64,000 nt of DNA from Candidatus Micrarchaeota archaeon (GCA_021790305.1 JAJYED010000001.1:11844-75843); one strand, 5' to 3'; shown: positions 7,909 through 44,115, counted from the stretch's first letter. The notes: generated from the letters alone by a model not told the origin. Numbers and translations: made by a program.

Positions 7909-7910
7909 AC

Positions 7911-9860: not shown

Positions 9861-9878
9861 ATCATATGATATAAAAGC

Positions 9879-9916
9879 GGATGGGGCTTTTCCCCATCTC
9901 TTTTTCTTTTTTATTT
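9879..9916 (+). terminator. Hairpin plus T-run terminator after the pilin-candidate gene
   Basis: GATGGGG-CTTTT-CCCCATC forms a 7-bp stem, followed immediately by TCTTTTTCTTTTTTATTT. Confidence 0.5.
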
Positions 9917-10004
9917 ATCCATCAAGATATTGGTTCTTGTAAACCAAACATATGCTTTAAATAAGTTGTTTGAATCTTAATATTACGGTGTTTATCTGGG
10001 AAGT

Positions 10005-10751: not shown

Positions 10752-10788
10752 ATAATCCATTTATAAATTATACAGGAGCAACTATATC

Positions 10789-12060: not shown

Positions 12061-12067
12061 TGGTAGT

Positions 12068-13228
12068 ATGTTTTTCTTATTCGCAACAGCAACTTCGTAT
12101 CCGGGCTGTAGTTTCGGCGGAGTGGATACGAATAACTGGATACAAATAAATGCGCTGCTGCTTTTAATTGCAATATCGCTTGGTGCCGTATTCTACGCCT
12201 TTAGCAACATCTTGCCGCCTTCACAAAGCGAGAAGATGAAGGGCATGGTCAAAGCAGAGATATTTCAAGGGATGATAGGCATATTCATAGTTGCCGTTCT
12301 TGTATCATCGGCTTTCACGTGGTGCAACATAGGCATCTCTTTAACAAGCTCCTCAGGCATAACTACTGCCAATCCCATGGCATTCTCGGAAAGCTATCTG
12401 CAGAATCTGCTATTTACAAAAGGACTATCCCTGTTCGGATCTATATACTCGGAAACAGCATTATTGATGATAAACGGGATAGTATTGCAGCATGTGCTAA
12501 ACTTCGTACAGAGGATCGAGGCAAGCTATCTTCCTGTGCAGATAATTCTGTCGGAAAGATTGGCAGATGCACTGCAGAGTTATGCTATTGCATTTGGCTC
12601 TGCAAACCTTAGCATATTCTCAATAATCGCAGGGATAATATTCGTAATATATTTGGTTCTGCCTGTAGTCTCATCCATTGCGCTTACCGTGGTTGTGCCT
12701 ACTGCGATAGCCATGCGCATGCTCTCTTTCCTGGGTCCAAGGATAAGGGAGGCATCAGACGCTTTCCTTGCCATAGCGATAGCTGCATACTTTATATTTC
12801 CTTTAATGATAGTAATGAACAGCATGCTAATAAATTTCATTTACACTCCATGCACAGCTACTGTATCGACATGCAATCCTTATTCTACTTACCTGGGCCA
12901 GTACAAGCTCTCTCAGATACCTGCAGATTCGCTATTCAACACACCCCCGGCTTCTTTAGGCAGTTCCTTCTCTATATCTAAAAACTTCTTCGAAGGAATT
13001 ATCACAAGCCAAAATGGCCTTTTAGGAACATTCGGATCGATCTTTACCAATGCCTTCCTATTCCCTCAAGTAGTAATCTCATTTGCACAGGAGATAGCGC
13101 TTTTTGCTTTCCAGGGAGTATTCCTTATAGGACTTGATATACTTGTAACTATAATATTCGCCCAAGCTGTTGCAAAAGGGCTTAATTCAGTATCTGTTTA
13201 TGTCTCAGGAGGAGGTTTCTGGGGTTGA
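12068..13228 (+). CDS. Polytopic membrane protein, array paralog 2
   Basis: The ATG at 12068 is 8 nt after the paralog 1 stop (the track's TTG start at 12035 is an alternative). Motifs are REASDAFLAIAIAAYFIFP and VKAEIFQGMIG. Confidence 0.62.
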   Translation: MFFLFATATSYPGCSFGGVDTNNWIQINALLLLIAISLGAVFYAFSNILPPSQSEKMKGMVKAEIFQGMIGIFIVAVLVSSAFTWCNIGISLTSSSGITTANPMAFSESYLQNLLFTKGLSLFGSIYSETALLMINGIVLQHVLNFVQRIEASYLPVQIILSERLADALQSYAIAFGSANLSIFSIIAGIIFVIYLVLPVVSSIALTVVVPTAIAMRMLSFLGPRIREASDAFLAIAIAAYFIFPLMIVMNSMLINFIYTPCTATVSTCNPYSTYLGQYKLSQIPADSLFNTPPASLGSSFSISKNFFEGIITSQNGLLGTFGSIFTNAFLFPQVVISFAQEIALFAFQGVFLIGLDILVTIIFAQAVAKGLNSVSVYVSGGGFWG

Positions 13229-14874
13229 TGCGCATGAAATTAAGAATAACATTCATATTGTTCTTCCTTGCTGCAATTGCGACATATTCTGTTGCAAGTG
13301 CTGCTACACCAAGCACAAATAATAACTTCATAACATCATCGAGTATACTTAACAACTGGATCGTGATAGTCGCTGAGGGGGTCATTGCAAGCTTCATGAT
13401 TGTTTCAGTATACTACATGATAGGGTACCTGTTTAACAGATCAAGCATCAAGGCAGCAGCAACTTCTGAATTAGGCAAGCTTATCGGCATACTGATAGTA
13501 TCGATGGTAATACTGGGGGTATTTTATTCGTTCGGCGCTTCCCTGCTCTTTACAAATGCTGCTGGACAAGCTCAGATAGCGACCTTGTGCAACCAACTTC
13601 AGAATTCAAGGATAAATTTCATAAGCACTAATTCGCTAGTGCCTTCTCCTTCACCATCTAGTACGATATGCACTGATATAATAGACCCGAAAGCAGGCAC
13701 GAATATAGGCCAGGCTACGCGTTACATAGATTATGGTCTAAGCTCAGTATACATAATAGAGGACAATCTTACAAACCAATCTGCCCAGTCGTTAAACTCT
13801 GTTTATATATTCAGTACAATGCTGGGCTTCCTCAGGAAATACTCGATAACCGATTCGGTGTGTTTTCCGGCTCCGCCCTGTCTCATACCGGGGGAACTCT
13901 TCCAGACAGGCGTCGAACTCTCTTCCACCCCGTATGCCGGCTATCAAATAGGAAATACTCTCCCAAATGTGATAGGGACAGAGGCAAATGTCATATTCTA
14001 CTTCTTCCTGTTCCAACTTATACTGATACTTCTGATGCTGCTGATATGGCCGTATCTGCTGGCTGCCGGCTTGCTGCTTGAGACAAATATGTTTACCAGA
14101 AGACTTGGAGGCCTATTGATAGCAATAGTGATATCAAGCATGCTGGTATACCCGACAGTATTCCTGTTCGAGTACTCCTCCTTAAATAATCTGCAGAATG
14201 TACAGCCATATGGTGCATCATCAATACCCAGCCTTGCCCTGTGCGGCGCCCCTGCAGGAGGCACTCCTCTTGGCAAAACCCCATTGCTAAACGGCCAGCA
14301 GGCAAGCGGTGTTTATTGCTACACTGATGCAAAAGAGCTGCCATTAAGCTACATATACAAAGCAACTCTTCCGGATACGTTTACCGATATGGTTCCAAAT
14401 AACTATAAGAGCTACAGCCCGAATCTACTGGTTCCGGCATGCCCTAATAAAAATGCGCAAGGTTTATGCTTCTTCCAGAAGAATCTGAACTTTTTCGTAA
14501 TGCCAAAGATAAAAGACATACTTAACTTGTACTTTACGTGGCCAGCAGGCGGAAGTCTCCTTTCATTCGAAGCTCCATTCGTCGTGCCAGCTACTGCTCT
14601 GGTAAAGAACGTGGTAGACGCAATAGCTTCATTGACCAGCCTTCTCTCAGGCAATTTCATAGGGTCATTTCCATCAAGCATACTTGATTATTACGTGGAT
14701 CCTGCACATACTGTTGCAGCTATACTCGCATTGATTAACGTATATGCAATAGATGCTGTTGTAGGATTCATATTGCCGGTATTAAATGTACTTATATTGA
14801 TATCATCAATATTAGAGATCTCAAGGCTGCTGGGAGGTGAAAGGACCATACTTGGCCTAGAAAAATTCGTGTGA
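13228..14874 (+). CDS. Polytopic membrane protein, array paralog 3 (largest, with an extra extracytoplasmic insert)
   Basis: The ATG overlaps the upstream TGA (TGATG), and GGAGG lies upstream. It has the signal peptide MKLRITFILFFLAAIATYSVASA. Motifs are RRLGGLLIAIVISSMLVYP and ATSELGKLIG. Confidence 0.65.
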   Translation: MRMKLRITFILFFLAAIATYSVASAATPSTNNNFITSSSILNNWIVIVAEGVIASFMIVSVYYMIGYLFNRSSIKAAATSELGKLIGILIVSMVILGVFYSFGASLLFTNAAGQAQIATLCNQLQNSRINFISTNSLVPSPSPSSTICTDIIDPKAGTNIGQATRYIDYGLSSVYIIEDNLTNQSAQSLNSVYIFSTMLGFLRKYSITDSVCFPAPPCLIPGELFQTGVELSSTPYAGYQIGNTLPNVIGTEANVIFYFFLFQLILILLMLLIWPYLLAAGLLLETNMFTRRLGGLLIAIVISSMLVYPTVFLFEYSSLNNLQNVQPYGASSIPSLALCGAPAGGTPLGKTPLLNGQQASGVYCYTDAKELPLSYIYKATLPDTFTDMVPNNYKSYSPNLLVPACPNKNAQGLCFFQKNLNFFVMPKIKDILNLYFTWPAGGSLLSFEAPFVVPATALVKNVVDAIASLTSLLSGNFIGSFPSSILDYYVDPAHTVAAILALINVYAIDAVVGFILPVLNVLILISSILEISRLLGGERTILGLEKFV

Positions 14875-16049
14875 TTTTTGTGAGAAAATACGCCCTGTTG
14901 ATAATATTCGTCTCCGCCCTACTTCCGGTATTGCATGCTTCATCTGTTCCATTCCCCAGCGGCCAGAATATCTTCGACTGTACTACCCTTTTCACAAACA
15001 ATGTGAACGGCAATTCTCTGGTAAGTCCTGCTCTTGCTTCCTACTCATCTTACACCTCACTCCTAAAAATATCCTTATTGGTTGCATTTGCAATGATCAT
15101 GTTGATGGGATTAGTATATGTCCTTGGAATAGCATCAAAGTGGGACATGCTCAAGAAATTCGCAGCTAACGAATACTTGGAAGATTTCTTAAGCATAATT
15201 ATAATATTAATAGTAATCGGCGGCATAGCTATATTCAACAGCGCATCTGTAACTGTTGCAAATACGTTTACAGTTAATCCAAGTTCTTCTACCACTTCAA
15301 TTCTGACTCCTGCCTCTTTATACACATCCTTATGCAGTAATATGTTTAGCAACATGATTGAACCAGGGCTTCTAACAGAAATATGGATAGAGATTAACAG
15401 GATCCTAATCGGATTGATTGGCGGATTGAAAATCGATCTGGCTCCTAGCAATTTCGGGATAATCTTCGTTCCTCTTGCAGGATTCTCTTTGGTAAACCAA
15501 CTGCTATGGATTGAAGGCGGCGCATCTTTCTTCATGCTTTCAGCCGGTGCAATGATGATAGTGCTGCTTTTTGTGATATACTACCTGTTCCCGCTCTTCC
15601 TGTACCTTGGCATTGCACTCCGTGCCTTCCCATGGACGAGGGCTGCAGGAGGGGCATTCATAGCGCTATTTGTTGCCTTCTATATATTCTTCCCTGCAAT
15701 TATGTACCAGTTCTCAACAAGCTTCTCTACCTTTACCAATCCCAGCAGCAGTGCAGTTGGTTTATGTTCTTCAGGAAAAACAAACTGCGTCAGCAGTCCA
15801 GAAAGCCTTGCTACCAGCTCTTTCAAGGCATATCTGGGCGTGCTTAACCTTGACGTTGGATACACGGCATATACTAATATATACTACTTTTCTTACATCT
15901 TCCTGTATCTTGCACTTAATGTATTCGGCTTAATACTGGCTCTGCTTATATCGTATGAGGTACTTGGCATAGTCGGAAGACTTCTAGGAGCCAGTTCTGT
16001 CAAAGGAAGCAACATGTTCAAGAAGATTCTCTCTCCAAATAAACCATGA
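14871..16049 (+). CDS. Polytopic membrane protein, array paralog 4
   Basis: The GTG start overlaps the upstream stop by 4 nt (GTGA). Motifs are RAAGGAFIALFVAFYIFFP and AANEYLEDFLS. Confidence 0.62.
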   Translation: MIFVRKYALLIIFVSALLPVLHASSVPFPSGQNIFDCTTLFTNNVNGNSLVSPALASYSSYTSLLKISLLVAFAMIMLMGLVYVLGIASKWDMLKKFAANEYLEDFLSIIIILIVIGGIAIFNSASVTVANTFTVNPSSSTTSILTPASLYTSLCSNMFSNMIEPGLLTEIWIEINRILIGLIGGLKIDLAPSNFGIIFVPLAGFSLVNQLLWIEGGASFFMLSAGAMMIVLLFVIYYLFPLFLYLGIALRAFPWTRAAGGAFIALFVAFYIFFPAIMYQFSTSFSTFTNPSSSAVGLCSSGKTNCVSSPESLATSSFKAYLGVLNLDVGYTAYTNIYYFSYIFLYLALNVFGLILALLISYEVLGIVGRLLGASSVKGSNMFKKILSPNKP

Positions 16050-17131
16050 GGTTGTATATGATGAATGCTTCGGTTGGAAATTTTCCAGGATTCCTCTTTT
16101 CAGCAGTCTGTTCATTAAATAACATATTATCCTCTCCATATACTTTCTGGTTTCCGATAGTAGTAGTAGTGGCAATTGCAGTGATACTCATTGCAATATT
16201 GATAGGTATGTTGTCTCCGTTGCTTGGTAGAAACAATCTTGTACCCTGGGCAAGACTAAAAGCATACGAGGAGGTAGCAACAATAATATTCGCAATAATA
16301 TTTCTAAGTTTCTCCTCAATGCTCTGCGCAATAAATCCGATACCTGCTCTAAACTCAATCGGATTAGTGCCTACCGAATGCTCCTCATCATCAGCTGTCC
16401 CAATAAATAACATCTGGGGAATAGCAGTATGCAATATGTATACATTTAATACTCATGTCTCAGAGATTCTAACTGCAGGATACTGGCTAAATTTCCTTAG
16501 CGATGTAGGTCCAAAGTTTGGGTTTAGCCCTAATTTTGGCGGTGTTGGCATATCTGCTTCACTGTCACTATCTACAGGTCCGGAGAATCTGTATCTGTCG
16601 CCTATGTACTTCCTCATAATAGGAGAGATCATGGTATCAATGCTGCAGGTCATTCTGTTATCTTCTGCCCCCATATTATTCTCATTTCTAATAGGCATAG
16701 GTCTGATAGCAAGGTCATTTGGTATAACAAGAACCTTTGGAAACGCCATGATAGCTCTTGGAATAGGAATAGGGTTCATCTACCCACTACTCGTAACCAT
16801 AAGCTATGGGTTCATAAACACTACATTTACCAATGTGCTAAATGCCGCAGGAACATCCTTTGTCAATCTTTTTAAAGATTTCACGCTGAGCTTCTTGCTT
16901 TCATTGGTTTATCCTCTTTTTGTCAGCTCTTCGATTTATTGGGCAGCCGTAGCTGTAGTGCAGATCTGGAATATCCTAAGCCTGTTAATATTCCTTGCAG
17001 CCATAGTTGTAATGGGTCTGGTGTTCATACCTATGCTAAACTTCATGATACTCGATGCTTTTGTAAGGGACTTTTCAAGCTCGCTCGGACAGCAGGTATC
17101 ATTTCTAGATATGTTAATCGGGGTAGTTTAG
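16046..17131 (+). CDS. Polytopic membrane protein, array paralog 5
   Basis: The ATG overlaps the upstream stop by 4 nt (ATGA). Motifs are RTFGNAMIALGIGIGFIYP and LKAYEEVATI. Confidence 0.62.
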   Translation: MRLYMMNASVGNFPGFLFSAVCSLNNILSSPYTFWFPIVVVVAIAVILIAILIGMLSPLLGRNNLVPWARLKAYEEVATIIFAIIFLSFSSMLCAINPIPALNSIGLVPTECSSSSAVPINNIWGIAVCNMYTFNTHVSEILTAGYWLNFLSDVGPKFGFSPNFGGVGISASLSLSTGPENLYLSPMYFLIIGEIMVSMLQVILLSSAPILFSFLIGIGLIARSFGITRTFGNAMIALGIGIGFIYPLLVTISYGFINTTFTNVLNAAGTSFVNLFKDFTLSFLLSLVYPLFVSSSIYWAAVAVVQIWNILSLLIFLAAIVVMGLVFIPMLNFMILDAFVRDFSSSLGQQVSFLDMLIGVV

Positions 17132-18226
17132 ATGAGAAAAGCAAGTGTATATCTGATAACTATCTTGTCCATACTACTAATCGGCGTGGCGAGCGCACAA
17201 TCAACAACATCCTCTGTCTGTAATACTGGAAGTGCTATACAATCAGCAGCTCCATGGTATTGCAGCCAGGTAAATACACAAGCCCAGAGCGTCTGGGTTC
17301 AATGGGCACCTCTTGCCATAACTGTTGCGTTATTCTCGTTCATGATAGGCGTTCTTATATTCATGGCTGGAATAGCCATGAAGAACAACACAGTCCGGAG
17401 TTTCGGAGTAGGTGAGCTGTATGAATCCATTGCGTCTATGCTGATTGTGGCAGGCTTCCTATTCATAACCGCAGTGCTTTTTGGTCTTATTCCATCGATT
17501 GTCACAGGCCCGATAAATCCATACAATACTTCGCTTAGCTACATAGCAACTACTATAAACACTACGAGCTCACTGGCATCAAGACTCTTCATAATAGGCT
17601 CGTTAGATGCATACTATGCAAGTATAAGCGTACAACTATACATCCCAGGAATTACGGATAACACCGAGGCTCCCACCCCTCTCTCTTCCAAACCATTTGG
17701 AATATTGATACTTCTATTCTACTGGCCGGCATGGGCACTTATGCAATTCATGCTGGATGCGCTAATTTCGCTTTATGCCCAATACTACTTTATCCTATTC
17801 TTCTTATACGCAGGCATACCTGTCTTTTTGATACCTGGCGTTATACTAAGGGCTTTCCTGCCGACCAGGGGGGTAGGAAGCATGATGATTGCAATAGCGA
17901 TCGGCTTCTTTTTGGTAATGCCTGTACTGTTCTCTGTTGCCTACTACTTTACCAATCTTGGCGCGTTAAAAGCGCTATCTAACACCTATTCTATACTAAC
18001 CCAGTATGGATCAGGCACAGGGGCGCAGGCAAATGCCCTTTCTCCTTCATCACCGCTTGTCCTTGCTGTTTCCAATTCCAGCAGTGTAATGGGTGGCTTC
18101 TGGCTATCCATATTATTCTTCCCAGCCATAATACTTGCAATAACCTACTCGGTAGTAGCTAACATCGCAAACCTTATCGGGGGAGCAGCAAAAGCAGGCA
18201 GCAGCAGGCTAAGAAGTCTGATATGA
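17132..18226 (+). CDS. Polytopic membrane protein, array paralog 6
   Basis: The ATG directly abuts the upstream TAG. It has the signal peptide MRKASVYLITILSILLIGVASAQS. Motifs are RGVGSMMIAIAIGFFLVMP and GVGELYESIAS. Confidence 0.65.
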   Translation: MRKASVYLITILSILLIGVASAQSTTSSVCNTGSAIQSAAPWYCSQVNTQAQSVWVQWAPLAITVALFSFMIGVLIFMAGIAMKNNTVRSFGVGELYESIASMLIVAGFLFITAVLFGLIPSIVTGPINPYNTSLSYIATTINTTSSLASRLFIIGSLDAYYASISVQLYIPGITDNTEAPTPLSSKPFGILILLFYWPAWALMQFMLDALISLYAQYYFILFFLYAGIPVFLIPGVILRAFLPTRGVGSMMIAIAIGFFLVMPVLFSVAYYFTNLGALKALSNTYSILTQYGSGTGAQANALSPSSPLVLAVSNSSSVMGGFWLSILFFPAIILAITYSVVANIANLIGGAAKAGSSRLRSLI

Positions 18227-18235
18227 AAGGATCAT

Positions 18236-18442
18236 TTACAACAGTGCGAATGTCATCAGAAATTGTTGATCATAACTATGATCATATTTAGTTATTGTTA
18301 CTACTGTCATTACCAGAACTACTGTTATCATTCGCAGAATAATTATTACTGCCATCCCAGAACTGCCGCTGTTATCGTTCATAGGATAACTACTGCCCTC
18401 ATTCCCTGAACTACTTTCCAGAGGCGTTCTAGTAAGAACCAT
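18236..18442 (-). CDS. Questionable 68-aa ORF (S/G/N-rich segment plus a hydrophobic helix) overlapping the end of the upstream gene
   Basis: The ATG overlaps the last 14 nt of the 278-aa gene. The region contains an out-of-frame direct DNA repeat (AAYGATAACAG..AGTTCTGG), so the frame assignment is uncertain. Confidence 0.25.
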   Translation of the reverse strand: MVLTRTPLESSSGNEGSSYPMNDNSGSSGMAVIIILRMITVVLVMTVVTITKYDHSYDQQFLMTFALL

Positions 18443-19265
18443 TACTTAATTCGTATGTTCTCTCAGATTTTGCTATAAACATAGCTGATATTCTCTCCGC
18501 TATTCTCTTGTTAAATAGGTTGCCATAATATTGTATAGACAATTGAGGTTCTGCCATCATTATGTAACTATGAACCAGATCAGCCTCCTTTATTGCAACT
18601 CCATGCTCTTTTCCGCGCGCCTCTTTCTTAACTGCTCTAAGAGACCCGAACGCCTCTCTAAAATCCCCAACTCTTATATCTGTGAGTATGTTAACTATCA
18701 AAGGTCTCAAAGGAGGTTCGTCCATCAAAGGCTGCATCATTTGCTGCACTGTTTTTTCCATTAATATATAATTTTCCTCTGCAGAAATAACTCCTTCACC
18801 ATTTTTATTAACAGAACTTGTGGAACGTGCGTGATTATACTCAGGAACATGCTGAATTCCTTGCTGCTCTCTCTTGCCAGTCATATAAGCATACGCAACA
18901 CCTATCCTATTAATTGCAAAATCATTATGTTCAATCTTGGCTTTCCCATAAGTTATCCTAAGAATATTCTCTGCCCCATCAAAATTACCAAATTCTATAT
19001 CTCTAAAAACAGCAACAATATATGGTCCCAACTGTTGATCGTAAAGCAACGGATACAAATCACTTCTGACAGAGTTCTCCACATTCAGGTCTCTTTTCGA
19101 GGAACTGTCATAATCAGACCTTGCTGTTTCGTACAATGCCTTTTCCACAGGCAATATACTTCCTGTATGTGCATCTGCATTAACTTGCAATGTAGCTCCA
19201 GCTATAAACATCCCTGCAACTGCTGCTTTTGCATATTTATCCAGCTTCTTATACATATTTCCCAA
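18429..19265 (-). CDS. Signal-anchored helical-repeat protein with an internal duplication, unknown function
   Basis: N-terminal hydrophobic segment AAVAGMFIAGATLQVNA. Two ~60-aa related blocks are present: LYPLLYDQQLGPYIVAVFRDIEFGNFDGAENILR and MQPLMDEPPLRPLIVNILTDIRVGDFREAFGSLR. Confidence 0.6.
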   Translation of the reverse strand: MGNMYKKLDKYAKAAVAGMFIAGATLQVNADAHTGSILPVEKALYETARSDYDSSSKRDLNVENSVRSDLYPLLYDQQLGPYIVAVFRDIEFGNFDGAENILRITYGKAKIEHNDFAINRIGVAYAYMTGKREQQGIQHVPEYNHARSTSSVNKNGEGVISAEENYILMEKTVQQMMQPLMDEPPLRPLIVNILTDIRVGDFREAFGSLRAVKKEARGKEHGVAIKEADLVHSYIMMAEPQLSIQYYGNLFNKRIAERISAMFIAKSERTYELSNGSY

Positions 19266-19345
19266 TATAAATTATGAATTTTCTTATATTTAAGAGTTAC
19301 TCTGGATTAGGAATGCTTTTATAAACTGAGAGCTAATCTTAAATT

Positions 19346-20629
19346 ATGATATGGATTCTGGGACTCATGCATTTGGTGCTATCGCTCGGAGATGTAAATG
19401 CACTAATCCCAATTATCGTAATACTAATACTTATCGTTGCAGCAGGAGGTCTAACACGAGGTTTTGATATATTCAGTTTATTTGGGCTCGGCACGCTTGC
19501 CGGAATAGGGCTTGGTAGTCGAGGATCAATTGCAAAGGGCAATGCATACGACAAGTCAGCCCCTTCTGGATTCAAAGACGCAACTGTATCCAAGATAGAT
19601 AAAAAAGAAATAAAAAAGATAAGAGAACAGATTAAAAACAAGGAGATAACAAGATGGAAAGGATTAAAGAAAATGGGAGCTGTCATGGGAGGAACCGCTT
19701 CCTCTCTAAGCGCAGCCGCAATGATTGGCAGTGCTTACAGAGAGCTTTCAAAGAAGCGGGAAAGTAAGACTTCTTATGGCGATAAAGACTCACCAAATAT
19801 CCTAAAAAGAGGAGCAAAAGCTGGGGGCACATCAAAGATGAGTGTAAGAGAATCTGAAAACGCAGTAGCAAATAGGGTAAGGATGGCAGTGATGAACGAA
19901 CCTCCAAACTTTAAACCAAGATCAAGTGTACCTGAACAGCCATACTCTGCAACCGAAACCAATTATAACTTCAAACCATCTCTTCCATTCTCTTCAATAG
20001 AAGCTGCTGTTGCATGGTCGCTATCATCACATAAGCAAGGTGGTTCTAATCAGGGAAAACCAACTATGGCTGAGATGTTAAGAACAAAAGAGATGAAGAG
20101 ACTTGCTGCAGAAGATCCAAAGGAATTCAACAGGAGATACCTCCGTATGGCAAGAAAACAACTGCTCCTGCATGGCAAATTGCATGCACAAGCTATGCGC
20201 GAGAAGTTCGATAAAGATCCGCGTTATAAAAAAGAGTACATAAAAGAAAAATACATACAGGCAGGCAAAGGCAGGCCAAGATTAGGCACTTATACTATCA
20301 ATCTAAGCAGGAAGGGCAACAAGAAGAATATCAGTGATAACGGTCCAAAGTTCGGACCCCATGAAGAAGCAAACATTGTCAGTGCCCGTGGTCGTTCGTT
20401 TAATATAAAGGGACCTACGAGCATGGAAATAAGTGCCAGCGTCGGTCAGCTTAAAAAGAAATGGAGCATAAAAGCAAAAGGAGAAGAAGCAAGTAAAAAG
20501 AGAATGAACAACATCGAGGAAGACTTCAGAAAAAGACAGGAAGATAAGTTAAAAGAAGCAGAAGAAGAAAGACATGCGAGAGAAGAACTCAAAGCAAAAA
20601 AAGAAAAAGAAAAGGAAGATGAAGAATAA
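19346..20629 (+). CDS. Membrane-anchored, highly basic low-complexity protein
   Basis: Two N-terminal hydrophobic helices are followed by ~360 aa rich in K/R/E, with a KEKEKEDEE end. No catalytic motif seen. Confidence 0.55.
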   Translation: MIWILGLMHLVLSLGDVNALIPIIVILILIVAAGGLTRGFDIFSLFGLGTLAGIGLGSRGSIAKGNAYDKSAPSGFKDATVSKIDKKEIKKIREQIKNKEITRWKGLKKMGAVMGGTASSLSAAAMIGSAYRELSKKRESKTSYGDKDSPNILKRGAKAGGTSKMSVRESENAVANRVRMAVMNEPPNFKPRSSVPEQPYSATETNYNFKPSLPFSSIEAAVAWSLSSHKQGGSNQGKPTMAEMLRTKEMKRLAAEDPKEFNRRYLRMARKQLLLHGKLHAQAMREKFDKDPRYKKEYIKEKYIQAGKGRPRLGTYTINLSRKGNKKNISDNGPKFGPHEEANIVSARGRSFNIKGPTSMEISASVGQLKKKWSIKAKGEEASKKRMNNIEEDFRKRQEDKLKEAEEERHAREELKAKKEKEKEDEE

Positions 20630-20712
20630 GAATGCAGAATAAGCAAAGAGCAAGGCCAACTATATCGTATAGTTTATTAAGCTGACCTATTATTTTATAT
20701 CAGGTAATCTGG

Positions 20713-21534
20713 TTGAACAAGAACTTTTCTTTCCTGATATTCTTGGGCCTGCTTTCAGGAGCTTTCATATGTGCAGTAATAATAGGCATACTGCCTCCAG
20801 GGTATGAAATAGTCGCAATAATCCTGGCGGCAATAGGGCTTCTTTTCGATGTAATTGCCGCATCTGCCAGGTTCTATTCATACTACTTCGTTCCATTCAT
20901 CAAGCGCAAGAACAATGTGGTTACGCTGAGCAACGAGCCACCATTCTTTGTGACAGCTTCGGGAAATGCAATAATAATAAAAGAAGAAGAAAACACCTAT
21001 GCGAGCGTCTTTGTAAAGATACCTGTCTATCTGTCTTCAACGGAGATGTCTGACGAGGAGAAGCTCAATTTTGCAAGATCCTTCTCGAAGATGATAACAG
21101 TCAATAGCAGATATCCGATGAAACTGGCATCACAGCTCTATTACCTTAACAAAGACGAGTACATACGAAGGATAAGTGCAAAGCTGAATGAAGTGGAAGA
21201 CAAGTACGATAAACTGAAAGCTGACAAGACCACGCCTGACAAGCTTCTGGAGCGCGTAGAAGGAGAGTTGGCGATGTGGCACAACCTCTTTGACGGGGTT
21301 AACAAGTCGCCCTCGCAGAACCAGATGGCATATGCCATGGTAAGTGCCCCCGGGGCGAACGAGGAGGAAGCAGTAGCGATAGCCATGCAGCGTGCAGAGG
21401 AGGTCGCAGCAGGAGCCGGCTCAATCTTCGGCGTGACTGCAAGCATAGCTACCGGAGAGGAGATGCTCACGTTTGTAGAGCCAGAATACAGCATACCTCC
21501 CGCAACGATAAGCGAGCTTCTCAAGAAGGGATAA
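20713..21534 (+). CDS. 2-TM plus ~200-aa soluble-domain protein, paralog a (possible VirB3/VirB4-N-domain-like component)
   Basis: TTG start and an N-terminal TM hairpin (FLIFLGLLSGAFICAVIIGIL / IVAIILAAIGLLFDVIAA). The soluble domain is collinear with the next ORF. It lies directly upstream of the VirB4-like ATPase. Confidence 0.55.
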   Translation: MNKNFSFLIFLGLLSGAFICAVIIGILPPGYEIVAIILAAIGLLFDVIAASARFYSYYFVPFIKRKNNVVTLSNEPPFFVTASGNAIIIKEEENTYASVFVKIPVYLSSTEMSDEEKLNFARSFSKMITVNSRYPMKLASQLYYLNKDEYIRRISAKLNEVEDKYDKLKADKTTPDKLLERVEGELAMWHNLFDGVNKSPSQNQMAYAMVSAPGANEEEAVAIAMQRAEEVAAGAGSIFGVTASIATGEEMLTFVEPEYSIPPATISELLKKG

Positions 21535-21536
21535 GC

Positions 21537-22361
21537 ATGGATGAAGAGACGATATTCAGGGTTGGGATCACATCGATACTTGCATTGATGTTCGCATCGT
21601 TCAGTGCAGCTTATGGTCCTTTGGATATACTTGCAATAATACTCTTCCTAGTTGCATTCATTCTTATAATGGTCATAAGCTTCGCAGACTTCTTACTCTT
21701 TCCGATATTCACAAAGCTTCTCAAGGTCAGCACAATTCCTGCAAGGGATTACACGATTCCTAAAGAAAACGACGGGATAGTAAAGTATGTTAACGGCCTT
21801 TACTACGCAACGGGATATCTTACTGCCAATGTCTACAATTATGTCTTCCAGGCGGAGCAGATGATAGAAGGGGAGGAGAGCGAGATGGTCATGGGGCCCG
21901 ACAAATGGGAAAAGGCAGTAATGAGCGTAAAATTCCCATTCAAATTCATAGCGATAGGGCAGGCTGTAGACATACAGAAGTACAGGGATGACCTGGAAGG
22001 AAGAAGGGCATATCTCGAATTCCAATACTCAAAAAGCGAGAGCGCTCCCAATGTCTCTACTTCAGTGCTCGAAGACCTAAAAAGAAGAACGCGAGTGCTT
22101 CAGGTAAGGATAGACAGACTTGGGGCCGGTGAGAGACCTCTTAGCAGCATGATGTATATAGAGACCACTGCAGTTGGAATAACAATGAGCGATGCCATGA
22201 GTAAACTTACCCAGCAGACAGACCAGCTGCAAACGGTATTCAATGTATTCGATCTTGACCTGATAAGGGTGGTGGGCAGGGAGATGTACAGTCTTTACAA
22301 GCTGAATTATTACATACCAACCATGGAAGAGATTATATCATCATTCCAGTTCCAAAAATGA
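21537..22361 (+). CDS. 2-TM plus ~200-aa soluble-domain protein, paralog b
   Basis: Starts 2 nt after the previous stop. It has the same architecture, and its C-terminal blocks align (MMYIETTAVGITMSDAMSKL...VFNVFDLDLIRVVGREM vs MAYAMVSAPGANEEEAVAIA...IFGVTASIATGEEM). Confidence 0.55.
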   Translation: MDEETIFRVGITSILALMFASFSAAYGPLDILAIILFLVAFILIMVISFADFLLFPIFTKLLKVSTIPARDYTIPKENDGIVKYVNGLYYATGYLTANVYNYVFQAEQMIEGEESEMVMGPDKWEKAVMSVKFPFKFIAIGQAVDIQKYRDDLEGRRAYLEFQYSKSESAPNVSTSVLEDLKRRTRVLQVRIDRLGAGERPLSSMMYIETTAVGITMSDAMSKLTQQTDQLQTVFNVFDLDLIRVVGREMYSLYKLNYYIPTMEEIISSFQFQK

Positions 22362-22401
22362 TAACTAAATAATATGTCTGAACAATGTTATGTGAACGAT
22401 T

Positions 22402-23907
22402 ATGGGATTAATAAGGATACAGAATGTAATGAGCAATGAACTTGCAAAGCGCGTCTTCCTTAGCAGACCCCCTGAGCCTCCGCCTGAATTCCTTCTCAAC
22501 GACCCTACTGATTCAATATTCATAGGCATAACGAGAAGGTTCGGCGTGCCTCTTACATGGACATTCGCAACGCTGACAAACCCTCACATCTCAGTAGTGG
22601 GAATAACAGGAGCCGGTAAGTCCTTCTTTGTAAAGACCTTCCTGATAAGAGCGAGCTACGTATGGAATGCAAATGCAATCATAATAGACTGGGCAGGAGA
22701 GTACAAATCATGGGTGGCACAGAGCGGAGGCAAGATCGTTGCCCTGGGAAAGGGCGATTTCATAAACATAATGGATCTCGCAGGCATGAAACCTCTTGAC
22801 AGGGCAAAGCAGATAATGAATGCACTTGACATACTGACCGATATTACCAGCTTTGCGGAGCAGAGAAGACTTACGGCAGAGGCCATAGAGCAGACTTATG
22901 TGAATGCAGGCTTCCCTCTTACCCAGATTCCAAAGGATGGAAAGGATGCCCCTACTCTGAAGAACGTGACCGCGCTGCTGGAGGAGAAGCTTGGCGAAGG
23001 TAACTACGCATATCCTGCAGAGCTTGAGAATGCGATATACAGATTAAGGGAATTCTCAAGAGAAGGGGAAGACTACTTTGCAAGGAAGAGCACAGTCGAT
23101 CTTGACAAACTTATCACATCCGGACTTGTAGACCTTGACCTTTCCGGTCTTCCCGATGAGAGGTTCAGGGCGCTTGCAGGACTATTCATACTGCAGACAT
23201 TGAAGGAAAAGATGCGTTTTGAAGGATGGAGTCCTAGCAAGGGACTTAAGGCAATAATAGTGCTTGACGAGGCATGGAAGATAGCAAGCGATGAAAGGAG
23301 CGACGCAATCACTATAATTAGAGAAGGTAGGAAGTACCAATTCGGCCTCATAGTTGCATCGCAGAACCCTACTGATATAAACGAGGCAATATTCTCCAAC
23401 GTAGGCACATCAATAATACTAAGGATAAGGTTCGAGAAGTTCCTCGACTACCTGCAGGGATCCCTTGGCTTTACGGCTTTCATGAGAGATGAGATAAGCA
23501 GGTTCGGAGTAGGCCAGGCGGCCATAGACCTCTCATTCCAGACCTCTATAAAATTCCCATCAGTATTCATAATAGAGCATATAATCGGGGAGATGCCTCT
23601 GAATGTCTATGCCATAACTCTTGGTGATATACTTCAGGAAAGCGAGATGAACGATACGACCATACAAAAGGACTATTATCTGAAGAAGATGGACATAATG
23701 GCAAAGCTTGTAAGGACAAATGCAAGTATGGACACCATAAACAGCATAATATTCGACATGGATAAGGCAAACCGCTCCGTAGATGTCAAAGCACTTGCAG
23801 GCATACTCACAAAGAACAATATAAATCGTGAAGCCATAATACAATTCTTAAGGGAGGTTGGGATACCTGATAATATTATAAGCAGAGTGTTCGTATATAT
23901 GAGATGA
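22402..23907 (+). CDS. VirB4/TrbE/TraC-like P-loop ATPase (FtsK-HerA superfamily)
   Basis: Walker A VVGITGAGKSFF and Walker B IIVLDEAWKIA (the DEAW form typical of VirB4-type ATPases). REGRKYQFGLIVASQNPTDI matches the RK...ATQ..D sensor region. Confidence 0.72.
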   Translation: MGLIRIQNVMSNELAKRVFLSRPPEPPPEFLLNDPTDSIFIGITRRFGVPLTWTFATLTNPHISVVGITGAGKSFFVKTFLIRASYVWNANAIIIDWAGEYKSWVAQSGGKIVALGKGDFINIMDLAGMKPLDRAKQIMNALDILTDITSFAEQRRLTAEAIEQTYVNAGFPLTQIPKDGKDAPTLKNVTALLEEKLGEGNYAYPAELENAIYRLREFSREGEDYFARKSTVDLDKLITSGLVDLDLSGLPDERFRALAGLFILQTLKEKMRFEGWSPSKGLKAIIVLDEAWKIASDERSDAITIIREGRKYQFGLIVASQNPTDINEAIFSNVGTSIILRIRFEKFLDYLQGSLGFTAFMRDEISRFGVGQAAIDLSFQTSIKFPSVFIIEHIIGEMPLNVYAITLGDILQESEMNDTTIQKDYYLKKMDIMAKLVRTNASMDTINSIIFDMDKANRSVDVKALAGILTKNNINREAIIQFLREVGIPDNIISRVFVYMR

Positions 23908-23911
23908 GTGC

Positions 23912-24211
23912 ATGGCAGGAACCTACATGATAAACAAGATAGAGCTCAAGCGCATACTCCATTCTTTCGGCGTTAATATAACGAGCGTTGAGAAAATGTT
24001 AGGGGAGCTCGACAAGATGCACAAGAATGTCAATGCGATAGAGTTTGCCAAGATGCTCTTTGGAGTAGGGCTGAAACAGTTGCAGGTCGAGACGATACTG
24101 AGAAGGATAGGAGTAGATGACCTTTCCATATCAGACATATTCGATAGGATAGATGAGGATAAGATACACCAGTCATTCGGAAGAGTGGTGGAACTCGGTG
24201 TAGATCTATAA
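23912..24211 (+). CDS. Small helical protein, unknown function
   Basis: 99-aa ORF starting 4 nt after the ATPase stop. No recognisable motif. Confidence 0.45.
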   Translation: MAGTYMINKIELKRILHSFGVNITSVEKMLGELDKMHKNVNAIEFAKMLFGVGLKQLQVETILRRIGVDDLSISDIFDRIDEDKIHQSFGRVVELGVDL

Positions 24212-24334
24212 CAAGGTGATGATGTAACAAGCAGTTATTGTATAATATGCGGCAAGAAGAAGGACGGGATAAAAGTCGCTGATGATCATGTCCTAAAGTC
24301 ACTCAGATGGTTCAAGACGAATATAACAAAGAAC

Positions 24335-24604
24335 GTGCAGAACAATGCGCTTGTAGTATGCAAGACCTGCTATCCGCAGTACAGCAAGCAGCGCAAGAAG
24401 TATGTAAGCAGGAGGACCGCATATGTGGCTTTGGGACTCATATTCCTTATACTGTCAATAATAATATCTTCCGGGGCATGGCTGACTGCACTGTCAATAG
24501 GCATATTCATAGTCATACTTCTATATGCATTATCACTTATCAATTACATGCCTGGCCTGCAGCTACCTAAAGTAAGCAAAAAGAACAGTTCAAGGAAGAA
24601 ATAA
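24335..24604 (+). CDS. Zinc-ribbon plus 2-TM small membrane protein (start unresolved; frame is open from 24212)
   Basis: The track ORF starts at GTG 24335 and contains CKTC plus two hydrophobic helices. A partner CIIC lies upstream in the same open frame at 24239-24250, with no canonical start before it. Confidence 0.5.
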   Translation: MQNNALVVCKTCYPQYSKQRKKYVSRRTAYVALGLIFLILSIIISSGAWLTALSIGIFIVILLYALSLINYMPGLQLPKVSKKNSSRKK

Positions 24605-24660
24605 GGTACCCTTTTTATTCTTTCATTTATCTATAATAAAGCAATAATGGAGGAGTTGTT

Positions 24661-25386
24661 TTGGCTGAAGATACTATAGTGCTTCCGAAAGTGGAGGAAT
24701 TGCAGCTTGAAGGGAAGCTCAAGACCTCATTCCCTGAAATCAAGGCAAAGTTGGCAAAGCTTCCTTTCTATGACGTTGGCGCTGATGCCAATTCAGTGAC
24801 TGCTGCAAAGGTGGAGAGCAGGAACATAGACAAGATGCCTTACCTGTTCCACATAGTGAAAATAAGCCCTAATAGCATAGATGTAAGCTATTCGATAATA
24901 CCGGACACGAGCGAAAGCATGAGACGGGCATATGTTGTAAAGAATATTGCAGGTATTCTCTCGCTGATAAGCAATGATTACGAGATCGATGTTCCGAAGT
25001 TCATGCAGTATGTTGATTCTACGCTCGGAAATCTCATAGATGGGATATCGCAGAACTACAACCTGCTGTACAATAAGTACGATTCATTAACTGCAGAGTA
25101 CAGGGAGATAAAGAGGCTTAACAATGAACTGGAGGCATCAAATAAGAACATTACTGTGCAGATTACCCAGCTAAGCGAGGAGAACAAGGAGCTTAAAGAG
25201 GAGCTTGACAAGCTGAAGAAGTACTCGGACGAGGCTCTCATGGGGCTGGTTCAGGAATGGGTGGAGGTACATGATAATTCTATAGACACGGAGCAGTTCG
25301 CAAAGAACTACGCAGTATCCATACCTAGAGTAGAGCAGATACTGAATAAGATGGTGATGCAGGGTTATCTTGAGGTAAAGTCATAG
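24661..25386 (+). CDS. Coiled-coil protein with a C-terminal winged-helix-like end
   Basis: TTG start. The central part is a heptad-rich region (NELEASNKNITVQITQLSEENKELKEELDKLKK). The C-terminus is IPRVEQILNKMVMQGYLEVKS. Confidence 0.5.
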   Translation: MAEDTIVLPKVEELQLEGKLKTSFPEIKAKLAKLPFYDVGADANSVTAAKVESRNIDKMPYLFHIVKISPNSIDVSYSIIPDTSESMRRAYVVKNIAGILSLISNDYEIDVPKFMQYVDSTLGNLIDGISQNYNLLYNKYDSLTAEYREIKRLNNELEASNKNITVQITQLSEENKELKEELDKLKKYSDEALMGLVQEWVEVHDNSIDTEQFAKNYAVSIPRVEQILNKMVMQGYLEVKS

Positions 25387-25394
25387 GTTGTCCG

Positions 25395-25541
25395 ATGAGA
25401 TATAACGTTGTCGTGAAGAGGCGCTTCCAGGACATACGTGTGTTTAAGGTAATAAAACGCATGAATGACAGGTCTAACAAGCTGTCAAGGGCCGTAATGA
25501 AATTCCTGGAGAAGAAGATGAACGAGGAAAAAAAGGTATAA
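25395..25541 (+). CDS. 48-aa basic protein, possible ribbon-helix-helix (CopG/Arc-like)
   Basis: MRYNVVVKRRFQDIRVFKVIKRMNDRSNKLSRAVMKFLEKKMNEEKKV. It shows a beta-strand then helix-turn-helix pattern with SRAVMKFL. It is below the track's size cutoff and was found by hand. Confidence 0.35.
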   Translation: MRYNVVVKRRFQDIRVFKVIKRMNDRSNKLSRAVMKFLEKKMNEEKKV

Positions 25542-25553
25542 CTGTTTATTTTA

Positions 25554-27989
25554 GTGGTTAGGTTGACGAAAAGGAGGAAGCTGTCCAAGACAGTGATTAT
25601 AGGAGTAATTGCAATAATTGTGATAGCAATAATCTCAATCATACTTATAGAGAACGCTGTAAGTAGTGCCATAAGTTCGTATCATCCCTCTCTTCCTCCC
25701 CACGCTATAAACAGCTCCTTAAGCATGCAGAATGCATTTTTCGGAAATTATGCGAATTCAACAGCATTTGCAGCATATGCTAAACTGAACTATCATGTGA
25801 CCAACGCCTCATATGCGGGCTTTACATTAAGAGTCTTCAAGACAGATCCTATTCCCAAGATATACCTTGTAGATACGGACAACTACTGCATAAACTGCTT
25901 TCTGGGATCTACTATGCAGCAGTATCTGCAGAATTATCTGAGCCAGTTCGGTCTCCTTCTCAACCAGAGCAGTTTCAATTACATACAGCTTAACAACATG
26001 TCATCCGTGCCTCCAAATTCGATAATAATAGTACCTTCGGGGCTTATTCCATTATCCTTTCTTCCAATACAGAACAGCTCTCTTAACGGCTACAACGCAT
26101 GCCCATTAAACTATAATTATAGCATAATCAACATGCTCAATAAAGGAGATACTATATTCTATGTTGGTGACAACTTCTCCAACACGGTTTCATGCGGTCA
26201 GCAAATAATACAGACTCCACAAAGCATAATAAATCAATTGTCATCAATAGGCCTTGGCACAAGGCCGGCAAATGCTACTGACATAATAACAGCAAAGAAC
26301 CAGACCTACCTCACCTTCAATTCGCCAACATTCTTATTCACAAGTGGATACGTGGGACCGAGCTCAACTTATGTTAACGTTTTGAATGGCAGCGTAGTCG
26401 CACTTACCAACTATCCGTCCAAAGGGTGGAATAATGCATCTACTCTCTCACGGGATATAGCTGCATTAATTAACCTGCACTCCTGGAATGGCGAACTGGC
26501 ATCAGGCAGCACCGGATATATGCGGATAAAAAACAACAGCTCATCAGGTCAGATTGGGCTGGTAACTAATACCACGCAGGCAAGCCTGCAGTCTCTTACT
26601 AATATATCTCTATCAAGTACATATGTATTGGGAACTTCATACTTCTATAACTCTGCTGGCCAGTTGAAGGAGAACAATATATTATTCGGGTTAAATGGGC
26701 TTGAAAACGGATACGTGAGCATTACATCACCAGTTCCACAGACCGCAAGCGAATACATAAGTGCCGGTGCAACAAATATAACCAACGCTTATGATTCATT
26801 CCATATCTACATATACAATCTCAGCTATAATAACCCTGTCCAGTATCTTTTTATAGGTCAGATGAAACCAAACGTAACGTTCATAAAACCCATATCCTTC
26901 TCGCTTCTAGGCGGATACTATATAGCATCACTCATAGACTCAAACAACCATACATATGCACGTGCAATATTCAGAATATATAATACAAATATCACTGCAG
27001 TACGTCCATTCTCCTTCAGCAACAGGACCTTTACCTTCTCCCTCCATAGCGGAGACTATCCCCTTACCGGTATTCCATATAGCATATCCATTAATGGCCA
27101 GTATGTACAAAATGGTACTGTAAACAACAGTATAATACAATATTCCCTGCCGGGAGGTTCGGTATTGAGTTACGGGAATGAGACATTTACCATAAAGGTG
27201 CTCGGGAATACAGAAACAATAATAGAGCCTTACAGTAACACAATATTCAACATACCTGCGTACTATATAGAGTTTGCCATAGCGGCAGTCGTAATAGTTG
27301 TACTTAATAAGATACTCATCCCTCCAAATATAGACAGATACTACATAAACGTGCAGGAGTTCGGCCATACAGATAGGGCAAAGGTCAAGGAGCCTCCAGA
27401 GACGATCCTTAAGGTATTTGACCAGGTAAATTACTATTATCACTGGAGATATATGCCTCTAACTGCTGAAGAGGTAAAGGCAGGGATATCGGGCAATGTG
27501 AGATATGGAAACATGCCTATAGCGGTGACGCTGCAGAATACCTATACTGTTCTAAATAAGATGTCCAGGAAGGGACTTATAGTAGAAGCTGCAGATTATT
27601 ATGCCCCCAAGAGCTGGGAAGAAACATCAAAGCATGACATAGAATACCTTGTAATATTCAGGAAGCTCAGAGACTACAGCGTATCTAACGCAATGCTCTT
27701 CACTGACATTGACGCATATGATAATGTAGATATGATGATAACAAACAAGGGAGTCCAGAATTACGTCTATATATACTCCAAACTGTCAGAGAACCCGAAA
27801 CTAAAGAACATACCTCTGGGCAAGAGCCACAGAACATTTATCGTCTTCTTAAACGAAGAGGACAGATACGACTTCGTGGACAGGTTAAATATCTCATATG
27901 GGGAAGAGAGCGAGATATTAAGAATGAGTATAGACTCATTAGACATAAGGCTGATAGGCACTGACGATCTGACACAGCTCAAACTTTAA
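25554..27989 (+). CDS. 811-aa bitopic surface glycoprotein-like protein with a cytoplasmic C-terminal domain
   Basis: GTG start and an N-terminal TM (VIIGVIAIIVIAIISIILI). A ~550-aa ectodomain carries more than 20 N-x-S/T sequons. A second TM follows (YYIEFAIAAVVIVVLNKILI), then a ~220-aa cytoplasmic domain containing a wHTH-like stretch (TVLNKMSRKGLIVEA). Confidence 0.62.
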   Translation: MVRLTKRRKLSKTVIIGVIAIIVIAIISIILIENAVSSAISSYHPSLPPHAINSSLSMQNAFFGNYANSTAFAAYAKLNYHVTNASYAGFTLRVFKTDPIPKIYLVDTDNYCINCFLGSTMQQYLQNYLSQFGLLLNQSSFNYIQLNNMSSVPPNSIIIVPSGLIPLSFLPIQNSSLNGYNACPLNYNYSIINMLNKGDTIFYVGDNFSNTVSCGQQIIQTPQSIINQLSSIGLGTRPANATDIITAKNQTYLTFNSPTFLFTSGYVGPSSTYVNVLNGSVVALTNYPSKGWNNASTLSRDIAALINLHSWNGELASGSTGYMRIKNNSSSGQIGLVTNTTQASLQSLTNISLSSTYVLGTSYFYNSAGQLKENNILFGLNGLENGYVSITSPVPQTASEYISAGATNITNAYDSFHIYIYNLSYNNPVQYLFIGQMKPNVTFIKPISFSLLGGYYIASLIDSNNHTYARAIFRIYNTNITAVRPFSFSNRTFTFSLHSGDYPLTGIPYSISINGQYVQNGTVNNSIIQYSLPGGSVLSYGNETFTIKVLGNTETIIEPYSNTIFNIPAYYIEFAIAAVVIVVLNKILIPPNIDRYYINVQEFGHTDRAKVKEPPETILKVFDQVNYYYHWRYMPLTAEEVKAGISGNVRYGNMPIAVTLQNTYTVLNKMSRKGLIVEAADYYAPKSWEETSKHDIEYLVIFRKLRDYSVSNAMLFTDIDAYDNVDMMITNKGVQNYVYIYSKLSENPKLKNIPLGKSHRTFIVFLNEEDRYDFVDRLNISYGEESEILRMSIDSLDIRLIGTDDLTQLKL

Positions 27990-44042: not shown

Positions 44043-44115
44043 GGGGAGTTAGGCTAGCTTGGTAGGCTTCAAGCTTTGGGAGCTTGCGACCCGTGTTCAA
44101 ATCACGGACTCCCCA
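44043..44115 (+). tRNA. tRNA-Pro (anticodon UGG)
   Basis: Manual cloverleaf. The acceptor GGGGAGT pairs with ACTCCCC. The anticodon arm is CAAGC-TTTGGGA-GCTTG. The T arm is CCGTG-TTCAAAT-CACGG and the discriminator is A. No CCA is encoded, and a T-run follows. Confidence 0.9.

Follow-up and report, generated by a model that had tools for sequence, protein, structure and literature searches.

The only component found in every conjugation-type machine is an ATPase of the VirB4/CedB type. In the bacterial proteins (R388 TrwK, as well as TraC, TrbE, and CagE), one chain carries both a C-terminal P-loop motor and an N-terminal domain (NTD) by which this motor is tethered to the membrane complex. 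VirB3, a small hairpin protein, is sometimes fused to VirB4. In the Ced system of Sulfolobales (NF041017 and NF053655), CedB and CedD are each composed of a transmembrane (TM) segment, an NTD, and a HerA-type motor; both NTDs are structurally homologous to that of VirB4 and superpose on different parts of it (PMC11868833). Chromosomal components of a type IV secretion system (T4SS) have been reported to be essential for epibiotic growth in one cultivated strain of the candidate phyla radiation (CPR; Patescibacteria) (PMC12102498). In the searchable literature, what comes nearest to the locus described here is a proposal assigning VirB4/TraG-like domains to the SPEARE proteins of nanohaloarchaea (PMC10266531).

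We analyzed a stretch of 64,000 nucleotides (nt) from a Candidatus Micrarchaeota archaeon (GCA_021790305.1, JAJYED010000001.1:11844-75843; hereafter, the window). It contains three co-directional genes that encode two membrane proteins, here named A and B, and an ATPase of 501 amino acids (aa) (Table 1). We consider it likely that A and B are TM and NTD modules of a CedB/VirB4-type ATPase, duplicated and encoded in trans, and that the 501-aa protein is its separate motor. The parts are of a known kind; what is new is the split, duplicated architecture, fixed lineage-wide in Micrarchaeota. In the searchable literature on Micrarchaeota and DPANN archaea, no description was found of the gene cluster that holds the three genes or of a VirB4/CedB NTD encoded in trans. 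The putative archaeal secretion system of Makarova et al. 2015 (arCOG01314/arCOG02884) was considered and is a different, MoxR/vWA-based one.

The locus resembles Ced in several respects. Its motor belongs to the HerA clade and has CedD and CedB as top NCBIfam matches, the TM segment and VirB4-NTD-like fold of CedB appear to be present in trans on A and B, Ced also has two paralogous NTD-bearing subunits (CedB and CedD; PMC11868833), and both systems are chromosomal and nonmobile. In the Micrarchaeota locus, however, the TM segment and NTD lie on separate chains and are the only parts duplicated, so that a single gene encodes the motor; in Ced there are two whole ATPases. A and B are colinear over the same NTD region, whereas the NTD of CedB and that of CedD reportedly match different parts of the VirB4 NTD. 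No CedA, CedA1, or CedA2 homologue was detectable in the window, and the host of the cluster is a DPANN archaeon, that of Ced a crenarchaeon. With VirB4, the locus would share the tethering NTD as well as the P-loop motor, and the hairpins of A and B are analogous to VirB3 and could stand in for it. VirB4 differs in keeping NTD and motor on one chain, and the cluster yielded no VirB6, VirB8, or coupling protein.

The stand-alone motor and its proposed membrane-anchored partners

The preliminary description of this locus, made from the sequence of the window, had placed two ~273-aa proteins directly upstream of an ATPase that begins almost at once with its P-loop domain. The coordinates of the open reading frames (ORFs) agree with this arrangement, with spacers of 2 nt between A and B and 40 nt between B and the ATPase, and the starts of all three genes were confirmed by orthologues that begin at the same residues. 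The early position of the Walker A motif (Table 1) and the profile matches given below bear out the short N-terminus. The Walker A columns are invariant in the alignment examined, as are D289, E290, and A291 of Walker B. TM prediction found no TM or hydrophobic segment in the ATPase. TATA-like AT-rich boxes lie ~30 to 40 nt upstream of the starts of A and the ATPase; they were read from the sequence only and are not promoter evidence.

The ATPase matched the Pfam families DUF87, AAA_10 (45.9 bits; cutoff, 27.5), and P-loop_TraG (40.1 bits; cutoff, 25.8), all above threshold. Its NCBIfam matches were ranked CedD (6.8e-19), CedB (7.3e-18), F-type TraC (6e-15), and CD1110-family VirB4 (1.9e-14), with scores far under the curated cutoffs (for CedB, 64.5 bits versus 700); the match to TIGR00929 VirB4_CagE reached 29.4 bits (cutoff, 643). 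Alignments always covered the C-terminal part of the profile: positions 251 to 535 of 590 in CedB, 223 to 512 of 527 in CedD, 421 to 736 of 800 in TraC, and 437 to 708 of 792 in VirB4_CagE. HerA profiles matched in the motor part only (e.g., positions 395 to 510 of 561 in NF040819). Because every related profile was matched over its C-terminal part alone, the ATPase is best read as a motor domain without the N-terminal domain of its relatives, plus an extra C-terminal domain of ~80 aa. The preliminary description had called it VirB4-like. A relationship to VirB4 is likely, but the motor is closer to the HerA/CedB clade than to classical bacterial VirB4. For this reason, the closest family is the CedB type, and "CedB-type (VirB4-related) ATPase, split" seems an apt label.

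A and B were each predicted to have two N-terminal hydrophobic helices, which are also present in their AlphaFold2 (AF2) models, and a soluble domain of ~210 aa, in line with the hairpin and ~200-aa domain first proposed for them. Since a K/R-rich stretch follows the second helix in both proteins, the positive-inside rule would place the soluble domains in the cytoplasm. The two proteins had also been said to align with each other. BLASTP alone was weak on this point (19% identity over 140 aa; E value of 0.006), and the question was settled by comparing family profiles built from 34 A and 59 B sequences, which were colinear over 258 columns (hhalign probability, 96.4%; E value of 1.3e-9). The AF2 models, of moderate quality (predicted local distance difference test scores of 73.6 for A and 76.1 for B), share the same order of secondary-structure elements. 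By these comparisons, A and B are true but distant, old paralogues. We found 33 orthologues of A (265 to 310 aa), none with a Pfam match, and 196 homologues of B (~273 to 277 aa). Neither A nor B had a match in Pfam, NCBIfam, PHROGs, or PADLOC or in profile searches against PDB sequences, and PF03135 was undetected in both by the Pfam search.

Structure comparison pointed to the VirB4 family. When the AF2 models were searched with Foldseek against 350,542 PDB chains, the top 9 matches of B were all R388 TrwK/VirB4 (E values from 0.013; probabilities of 0.94 to 1.00; ~200 columns). For A, which was modeled independently, the top 11 matches were all TrwK/VirB4 (E values from 0.0068; probabilities of 0.85 to 0.99). 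The next-best matches of either model had probabilities of ≤0.6. The convergence of two models on one PDB family does not look like a chance pattern.

The link between A/B and the motor was also traced through fused relatives. When 1.84 billion representatives were searched exhaustively with phmmer, 1,911 relatives of the ATPase were obtained; the near ones were mostly short (~450 to 525 aa). Seven were long (P0316, P0317, P0321, P0323, P0324, P0340, and P0348; 689 to 913 aa; 29 to 34% identity to the ATPase). In these proteins the match to the ATPase begins at residue ~270 to 300, or at residue 223 in P0348, the N-terminus of which is cut short, and the first 222 to 300 residues comprise a hairpin of two helices followed by a soluble domain. 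The hairpin thus forms the N-terminus of the ATPase chain itself. A profile of these N-termini matched A over 239 columns, hairpin included (hhalign probability, 97.2%; E value of 3.3e-11), and matched B with a probability of 82.6% (E value of 9.7e-6). Fused versions with an A/B-like N-terminus joined to the motor, which the preliminary description had suggested looking for in related genomes, therefore exist. The split point coincides with a domain boundary: residue ~10 of the ATPase aligns with residue ~273 of P0316, and the proline-rich linker RPPEPPPEFLL, located at the start of the ATPase in the window, has KPKLPPISKLL as its counterpart in the fused proteins.

The fused relatives in turn match CedB nearly from end to end. 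Residues 42 to 643 of P0317 aligned with positions 13 to 587 of the 590 in the CedB profile (E value of 5.9e-41), and residues 102 to 641 of P0316 aligned with positions 75 to 587; the two proteins scored 141 to 144 bits. In the TraC, CD1110, and mycoplasma VirB4 profiles, too, the matches of fused relatives extended into the N-domain (e.g., residues 129 to 572 of P0323 on positions 250 to 689 of TraC). In a tblastn search against plasmids, P0317 aligned from residue 126 or 174 with Gram-positive VirB4/TraE proteins. A chain of similarity hence runs from A/B to the N-domain of CedB-like fused proteins and on to the VirB4 NTD, and the direct fold match to TrwK closes the loop. Four independent lines, namely, the lack of an N-domain in the ATPase, the fold matches to TrwK, the fused relatives, and their CedB matches, support the split, duplicated VirB4 N-domain that the preliminary description had proposed from architecture.

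The longest fused relative, P0324 (913 aa), is directly preceded by two genes with precomputed PF27251 (CedA1) matches. It lies in a compact Ced-like locus on a 16.9-kb Logan contig (SRR22387965) from an archaeon, in the order CedA1-like (84 aa), CedA-like (291 aa), two-TM protein (65 aa), the 913-aa TM-NTD-motor protein, and proteins of 432 and 119 aa. The 291-aa gene product matched NCBIfam Ced_CedA (VirB6-like; E value of 6e-23) and, more weakly, Ced_CedA1 (E value of 3e-5). The C-terminal region of the 913-aa protein reads, from its sequence, as a winged helix-turn-helix (wHTH) plus a restriction-endonuclease-like domain. Two further genes nearby are Sir2-like and MEDS/KaiC-like.

Conservation of the gene order and competing readings

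We surveyed 80 species-representative Micrarchaeota loci, 5 of which were cut by a contig end and were uninformative. Among the remaining 75, A, B, and the ATPase were adjacent in 62, an insertion of 0.65 to 1.9 kb separated B from the ATPase in 5, and the ATPase with its downstream genes had no A/B in the available 2.2 to 10 kb upstream in 8. The order A, B, ATPase was thus held in 67 of the 75 species, and A always directly preceded B. In an independent metagenome scan that started from B, the ATPase lay downstream in 55 of ~60 loci, and A and B occurred without a following ATPase in 4. The preliminary description had counted orthologous ATPases without these partners as evidence against its proposal. 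ATPases without adjacent A/B do occur, if marginally, but A-B pairs without the ATPase are similarly frequent, and the eight loci therefore look like broken clusters rather than losses. An insertion sequence (IS) element was found at the junction in one of the eight. The B-ATPase junction is a recurrent breakpoint between two modules, one comprising g01/g02 to g09 with A and B and the other the ATPase with g13 to g17 (Table 1), and both halves persist after the break.

The motor is the most conserved of the proteins compared. Among the more distant species, the median identity to the window was 68% for the ATPase, 62.5% for TopoVI-B, 47% for B, 43% for A, and ~32% for the polytopic paralogues g03 to g07. 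ATPase orthologues are all ~501 aa long and 65 to 72% identical; the closest match (98% identity) is from the metagenome-assembled genome MAS1.bin53. Two relatives (P0275 and P0276; 52 to 53% identity to the window ATPase) carry inteins bearing LAGLIDADG homing-endonuclease domains, inserted within Walker A in P0276 (GSGK|S) and just before Walker B in P0275 (..KLF|..|VVDEAWK); the window copy is intein-free. Inteins typically sit in highly constrained proteins, and the high conservation and the inteins both argue for strong constraint on the motor.

The homologues of A, B, and the ATPase that bear a source name are labeled Candidatus Micrarchaeota (DPANN archaea), with contigs of up to 850 kb among them, and the split form was seen only in Micrarchaeota-type contigs. 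Three contigs with the Micrarchaeota-type cluster (L019, L068, and L072) bear the titles Candidatus Marsarchaeota, "bacterium," and Candidatus Saccharimonadales in public records, probably through errors of binning or labeling.

The prevalence of short forms among the nearest ATPase relatives could be taken to mean that the split is ancestral, i.e., that separate A/B-type adaptors worked with a stand-alone HerA-clade ATPase and that CedB-like single chains arose by fusion; A and B would in that case be forerunners of an NTD, not pieces of one, with the same working mechanism. A distant relative with 36% ATPase identity (L089) also fits this order of events, since its A/B-like ORF is still separate and lies directly upstream. 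Single chains with TM segment, NTD, and ATPase are nevertheless far more widespread, being found in bacterial VirB4, CedB, CedD, and TedB (PMC11868833 and PMC9905601), whereas the split form is confined here to the Micrarchaeota-type contigs. We regard an ancestral split as unlikely.

A different reading takes the ATPase to be a HerA-type helicase or translocase of DNA repair or antivirus defense, A and B to be unrelated membrane partners, and their VirB4-like fold matches to be chance resemblances of a simple alpha/beta domain that bears a helical hairpin. The motor does belong to the same FtsK-HerA superfamily, its best PDB sequence matches are HerA proteins, PADLOC gave matches to HerA (7e-21), mad8 (1.5e-19), and DndH (1.4e-15), and the Foldseek E values are only ~1e-2. 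HerA-NurA and defense HerA systems nonetheless differ from the locus: it has no HAS-barrel and no NurA, Sir2, nuclease, or methylase partner nearby, and it has instead membrane-anchored, VirB4-NTD-like partners, which lack any PADLOC match. Chance would have to account for two independent models converging on one PDB family and for the hhalign ties of A/B to the N-domain in proteins with end-to-end CedB matches. The cluster has a fixed, housekeeping-like place beside TopoVI-B across the class, and its ATPase, at 68% conservation, differs from what is seen in defense islands. A defense system was accordingly judged very unlikely.

Even less weight can be given to an integrated conjugative element, plasmid, or provirus in which the ATPase would be the transfer or packaging motor. 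The VirB4/TraG-type Pfam matches, weak PHROG matches to terminase-like and Zot-like families, and the one genome with an IS element beside the ATPase are what such an element might leave. However, genes for an integrase, a relaxase, replication, or a capsid were not detected, and scanning of the flanking genes turned up no viral or other mobile-element genes. The cluster is flanked by the L1/L10 ribosomal-protein genes and by TopoVI-B/KH genes, and the window also encodes Trm5/Tyw2, aIF2-gamma, and Cdc48. The order beside TopoVI-B is the same in dozens of species, the proteins of which have diverged to 30 to 70% identity, and this constancy despite divergence indicates vertical inheritance. 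On context and synteny, we rejected this explanation as extremely improbable; the cluster is chromosomal and is not carried on a mobile element.

The interpretation of A and B as split-off NTD modules of a CedB/VirB4-type motor has its own weak points. Neither protein has a direct sequence match to any VirB4 or CedB profile, so that the fused relatives form the link. In sequence comparisons, the motor's scores with HerA, mad8, and DndH are as good as those with CedB or VirB4, and TrwK was not found among PDB sequences even with the profile of the fused relatives. The Foldseek E values are individually marginal (0.007 to 0.06), with template modeling scores of only 0.30 to 0.34 and root mean square deviations of 10 to 16 Å, and the TrwK residue range aligned was not reported for either model. 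Low template modeling scores are to be expected where a hairpin and a long helical hairpin can swing freely. In 8 of the 75 informative genomes, the ATPase does not adjoin A/B, and two distant short ATPases (L088 and L090) have no A/B-like neighbor. In the surrounding cluster, no VirB6/CedA homologue was detected by NCBIfam or by comparing the g02 to g09 profiles with a single CedA sequence, and the sole VirB2-type pilin candidate (g01) is weak and is present at this position in few other genomes.

The surrounding gene cluster and its possible function

The three genes lie inside a cluster of ~17 genes (Table 1), and A, B, and most of their neighbors are currently without any annotation.

Table 1. 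Features of the trio, the surrounding cluster, and other parts of the window
Feature	Position	Strand	Description
FlaI/PilB-type gene and neighbor	6340-9113	-	T2SSE ATPase of 522 aa and coiled-coil protein of 400 aa, divergent from the cluster
Whole cluster	~9390-27989		~17 genes
g01	9390-9860	+	156 aa; signal-peptide-like N-terminus and two hydrophobic helices
g02	10005-10751	+	248-aa polytopic membrane protein; 39 orthologous ORFs head the cluster in other loci
g03 to g08	10789-18226	+	Six consecutive paralogous polytopic membrane proteins, 361 to 549 aa
Gene between g08 and g09	18429-19265	-
g09	19346-20629	+	427 aa; one N-terminal TM helix and K/E-rich tail; counterpart of ~360 aa in other genomes
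Gene A	20713-21534	+	273 aa, TTG start; predicted two-helix membrane hairpin (~aa 8 to 55), then predicted cytoplasmic VirB4/CedB N-domain-like fold
Gene B	21537-22361	+	274 aa; architecture as in A; predicted hairpin at ~aa 6 to 49
ATPase gene	22402-23907	+	501-aa soluble HerA/CedB/VirB4-superfamily ATPase; putative interdomain-linker remnant (~aa 17 to 50), P-loop motor (~aa 50 to 400), and extra C-terminal domain (~80 aa)
Walker A	22600-22623	+	GITGAGKS, ATPase aa 67 to 74
Walker B	23254-23277	+	IIVLDEAW, ATPase aa 285 to 292
ATPase C-terminal domain	23665-23907	+	~80 aa
g13	23912-24211	+	99 aa; free-standing paralogue of the ATPase C-terminal domain
g14 to g17	24335-27989	+	Downstream module
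g14	within 24335-27989	+	~89 to 119 aa; CxxC and TM segment
g15	within 24335-27989	+	241-aa coiled coil
g16	within 24335-27989	+	48 aa
g17	within 24335-27989	+	811 aa; N-terminal TM segment, large N-x-S/T-rich exodomain, second TM segment, cytoplasmic C-domain
tRNA-Pro(TGG)	44043-44115
tRNA-Lys(TTT)	51811-51887
5S rRNA	53632-53745		Isolated

In nearly all loci, the ATPase gene is followed directly by g13, which encodes a protein similar to the C-terminus of the ATPase (BLASTP E value of 2e-5), and the g13 family profile matched residues 422 to 500 (hhalign probability, 97.7%; E value of 2e-12). The C-terminal domain is thus also present as a separate duplicated gene, like the N-domain. Genes g14 to g17 always travel with the ATPase, even where A and B are absent (L043, L052, L064, and L074). 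The cytoplasmic C-domain of g17 was considered as the split-off C-terminus of the fused ATPases (wHTH/nuclease-like), and this idea was dropped since the two do not match.

Upstream of A and B, the seven polytopic membrane proteins had no family match and no resemblance to one CedA sequence (for g03 to g08, hhalign probability of <7%). The family profiles of g03 to g08 matched one another in all pairs (hhalign probabilities of 96 to 99.5%), and each of the six represents an orthologous set that other Micrarchaeota also keep upstream of A/B. We regard them as candidate components of the machine's membrane channel or platform. That six paralogues stand beside a hexameric motor might hint at a hetero-oligomeric ring, which is pure speculation. 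The protein g09 had no family match in Pfam or NCBIfam, and no protein of the window matched Ced_CedA, CedE, or CedA1 in NCBIfam or precomputed Pfam results. The first gene, g01, encodes a protein with the conserved core LGG.LYA..H..P...G..QG..MGM..GGII. It matched T4SS_pilin (PF18895) in the same register in three orthologues, all below the cutoff (E values of 1.5 for the window, 0.0014 for L079, and 0.64 for L136), and may be regarded as a weak candidate for a VirB2/T4SS-type pilin.

In the mechanism that we propose, the three polypeptides would rebuild the unit of TM anchor, NTD, and ATPase that forms one chain in Ced and T4SS and has VirB3 plus VirB4 as its bacterial equivalent. The hairpins of A and B would sit in the membrane with the NTD-like domains toward the cytoplasm, where these domains would dock a soluble ATPase hexamer beneath a membrane complex of the polytopic proteins g02 to g08. 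Powered by ATP hydrolysis, a T4SS/Ced-like translocon that spans the envelope would then be assembled or would let its substrate pass. A single kind of motor with two different NTD subunits could mimic, from one ATPase gene, the two nonequivalent VirB4 protomers of R388 or the pair of CedB and CedD. We infer the A-B-ATPase complex, its stoichiometry, what it transports, and in which direction. Since similarity to CedA or VirB6 is not detectable, it is the motor and the NTD subunits that give the machine as a whole its T4SS/Ced character.

The cluster plausibly functions as a T4SS/Ced-like envelope translocon for host-derived DNA or other cargo. We favor the uptake or exchange of macromolecules, DNA first, with a host or kin over plasmid conjugation, because the cluster is chromosomal, class-wide, vertically inherited, and under housekeeping-level constraint in a host-dependent DPANN archaeon. 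The CPR T4SS offers an ecological and genomic parallel, in that a reduced-genome, host-dependent lineage keeps chromosomal, lineage-wide T4SS-related genes. The CPR set is of a recognizable monoderm type (full-length VirB4, PrgI/VirB3, VirB6, and VirB2-like), whereas in the Micrarchaeota cluster only the motor is recognizable by sequence, and the architecture is split.

A bolder and rather doubtful proposal, offered tentatively, concerns the cluster as a whole. All ~17 genes may form an undescribed, lineage-defining envelope machine of Micrarchaeota, rebuilt from a T4SS/Ced ancestor, with a soluble hexameric motor, released N- and C-domains (A, B, and g13), a hetero-oligomeric channel of g03 to g08, and a large, glycosylated surface protein (g17), which takes DNA or other macromolecules from Thermoplasmatales hosts. 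If this is true, the whole cluster would be the archaeal equivalent of the T4SS that is essential in CPR epibionts. Given its Micrarchaeota-wide presence, its housekeeping neighborhood, and a motor more conserved than TopoVI-B, the cluster is a prime candidate for the apparatus by which reduced archaea get host material, and it provides a testable gene set that was previously wanting. How the NTD couples motor to channel is still being worked out, and a separate, duplicated, membrane-anchored NTD would be a natural dissection of this coupling. The arrangement predicts an NTD-motor contact that works in trans, and it offers small soluble and membrane pieces for structural study.

Other observations concern the remainder of the window and the variability of the cluster. 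The 5S rRNA gene has no 16S/23S linkage within the window, which also contains two tRNA genes, and a FlaI/PilB-type ATPase gene and a coiled-coil protein gene diverge from the cluster on the minus strand (Table 1). The minus-strand gene in the gap between g08 and g09 was absent from the other species examined (L005 and L006). In two contigs of the window's species that encode an identical g01 (L165 and L166), several membrane paralogues are of unequal length (430 versus 423, 537 versus 548, and 386 versus 392 aa), and the gene in this gap encodes 329 aa in one and is replaced by ORFs of 275 and 68 aa in the other. These differences represent strain-level variability inside an otherwise conserved cluster.

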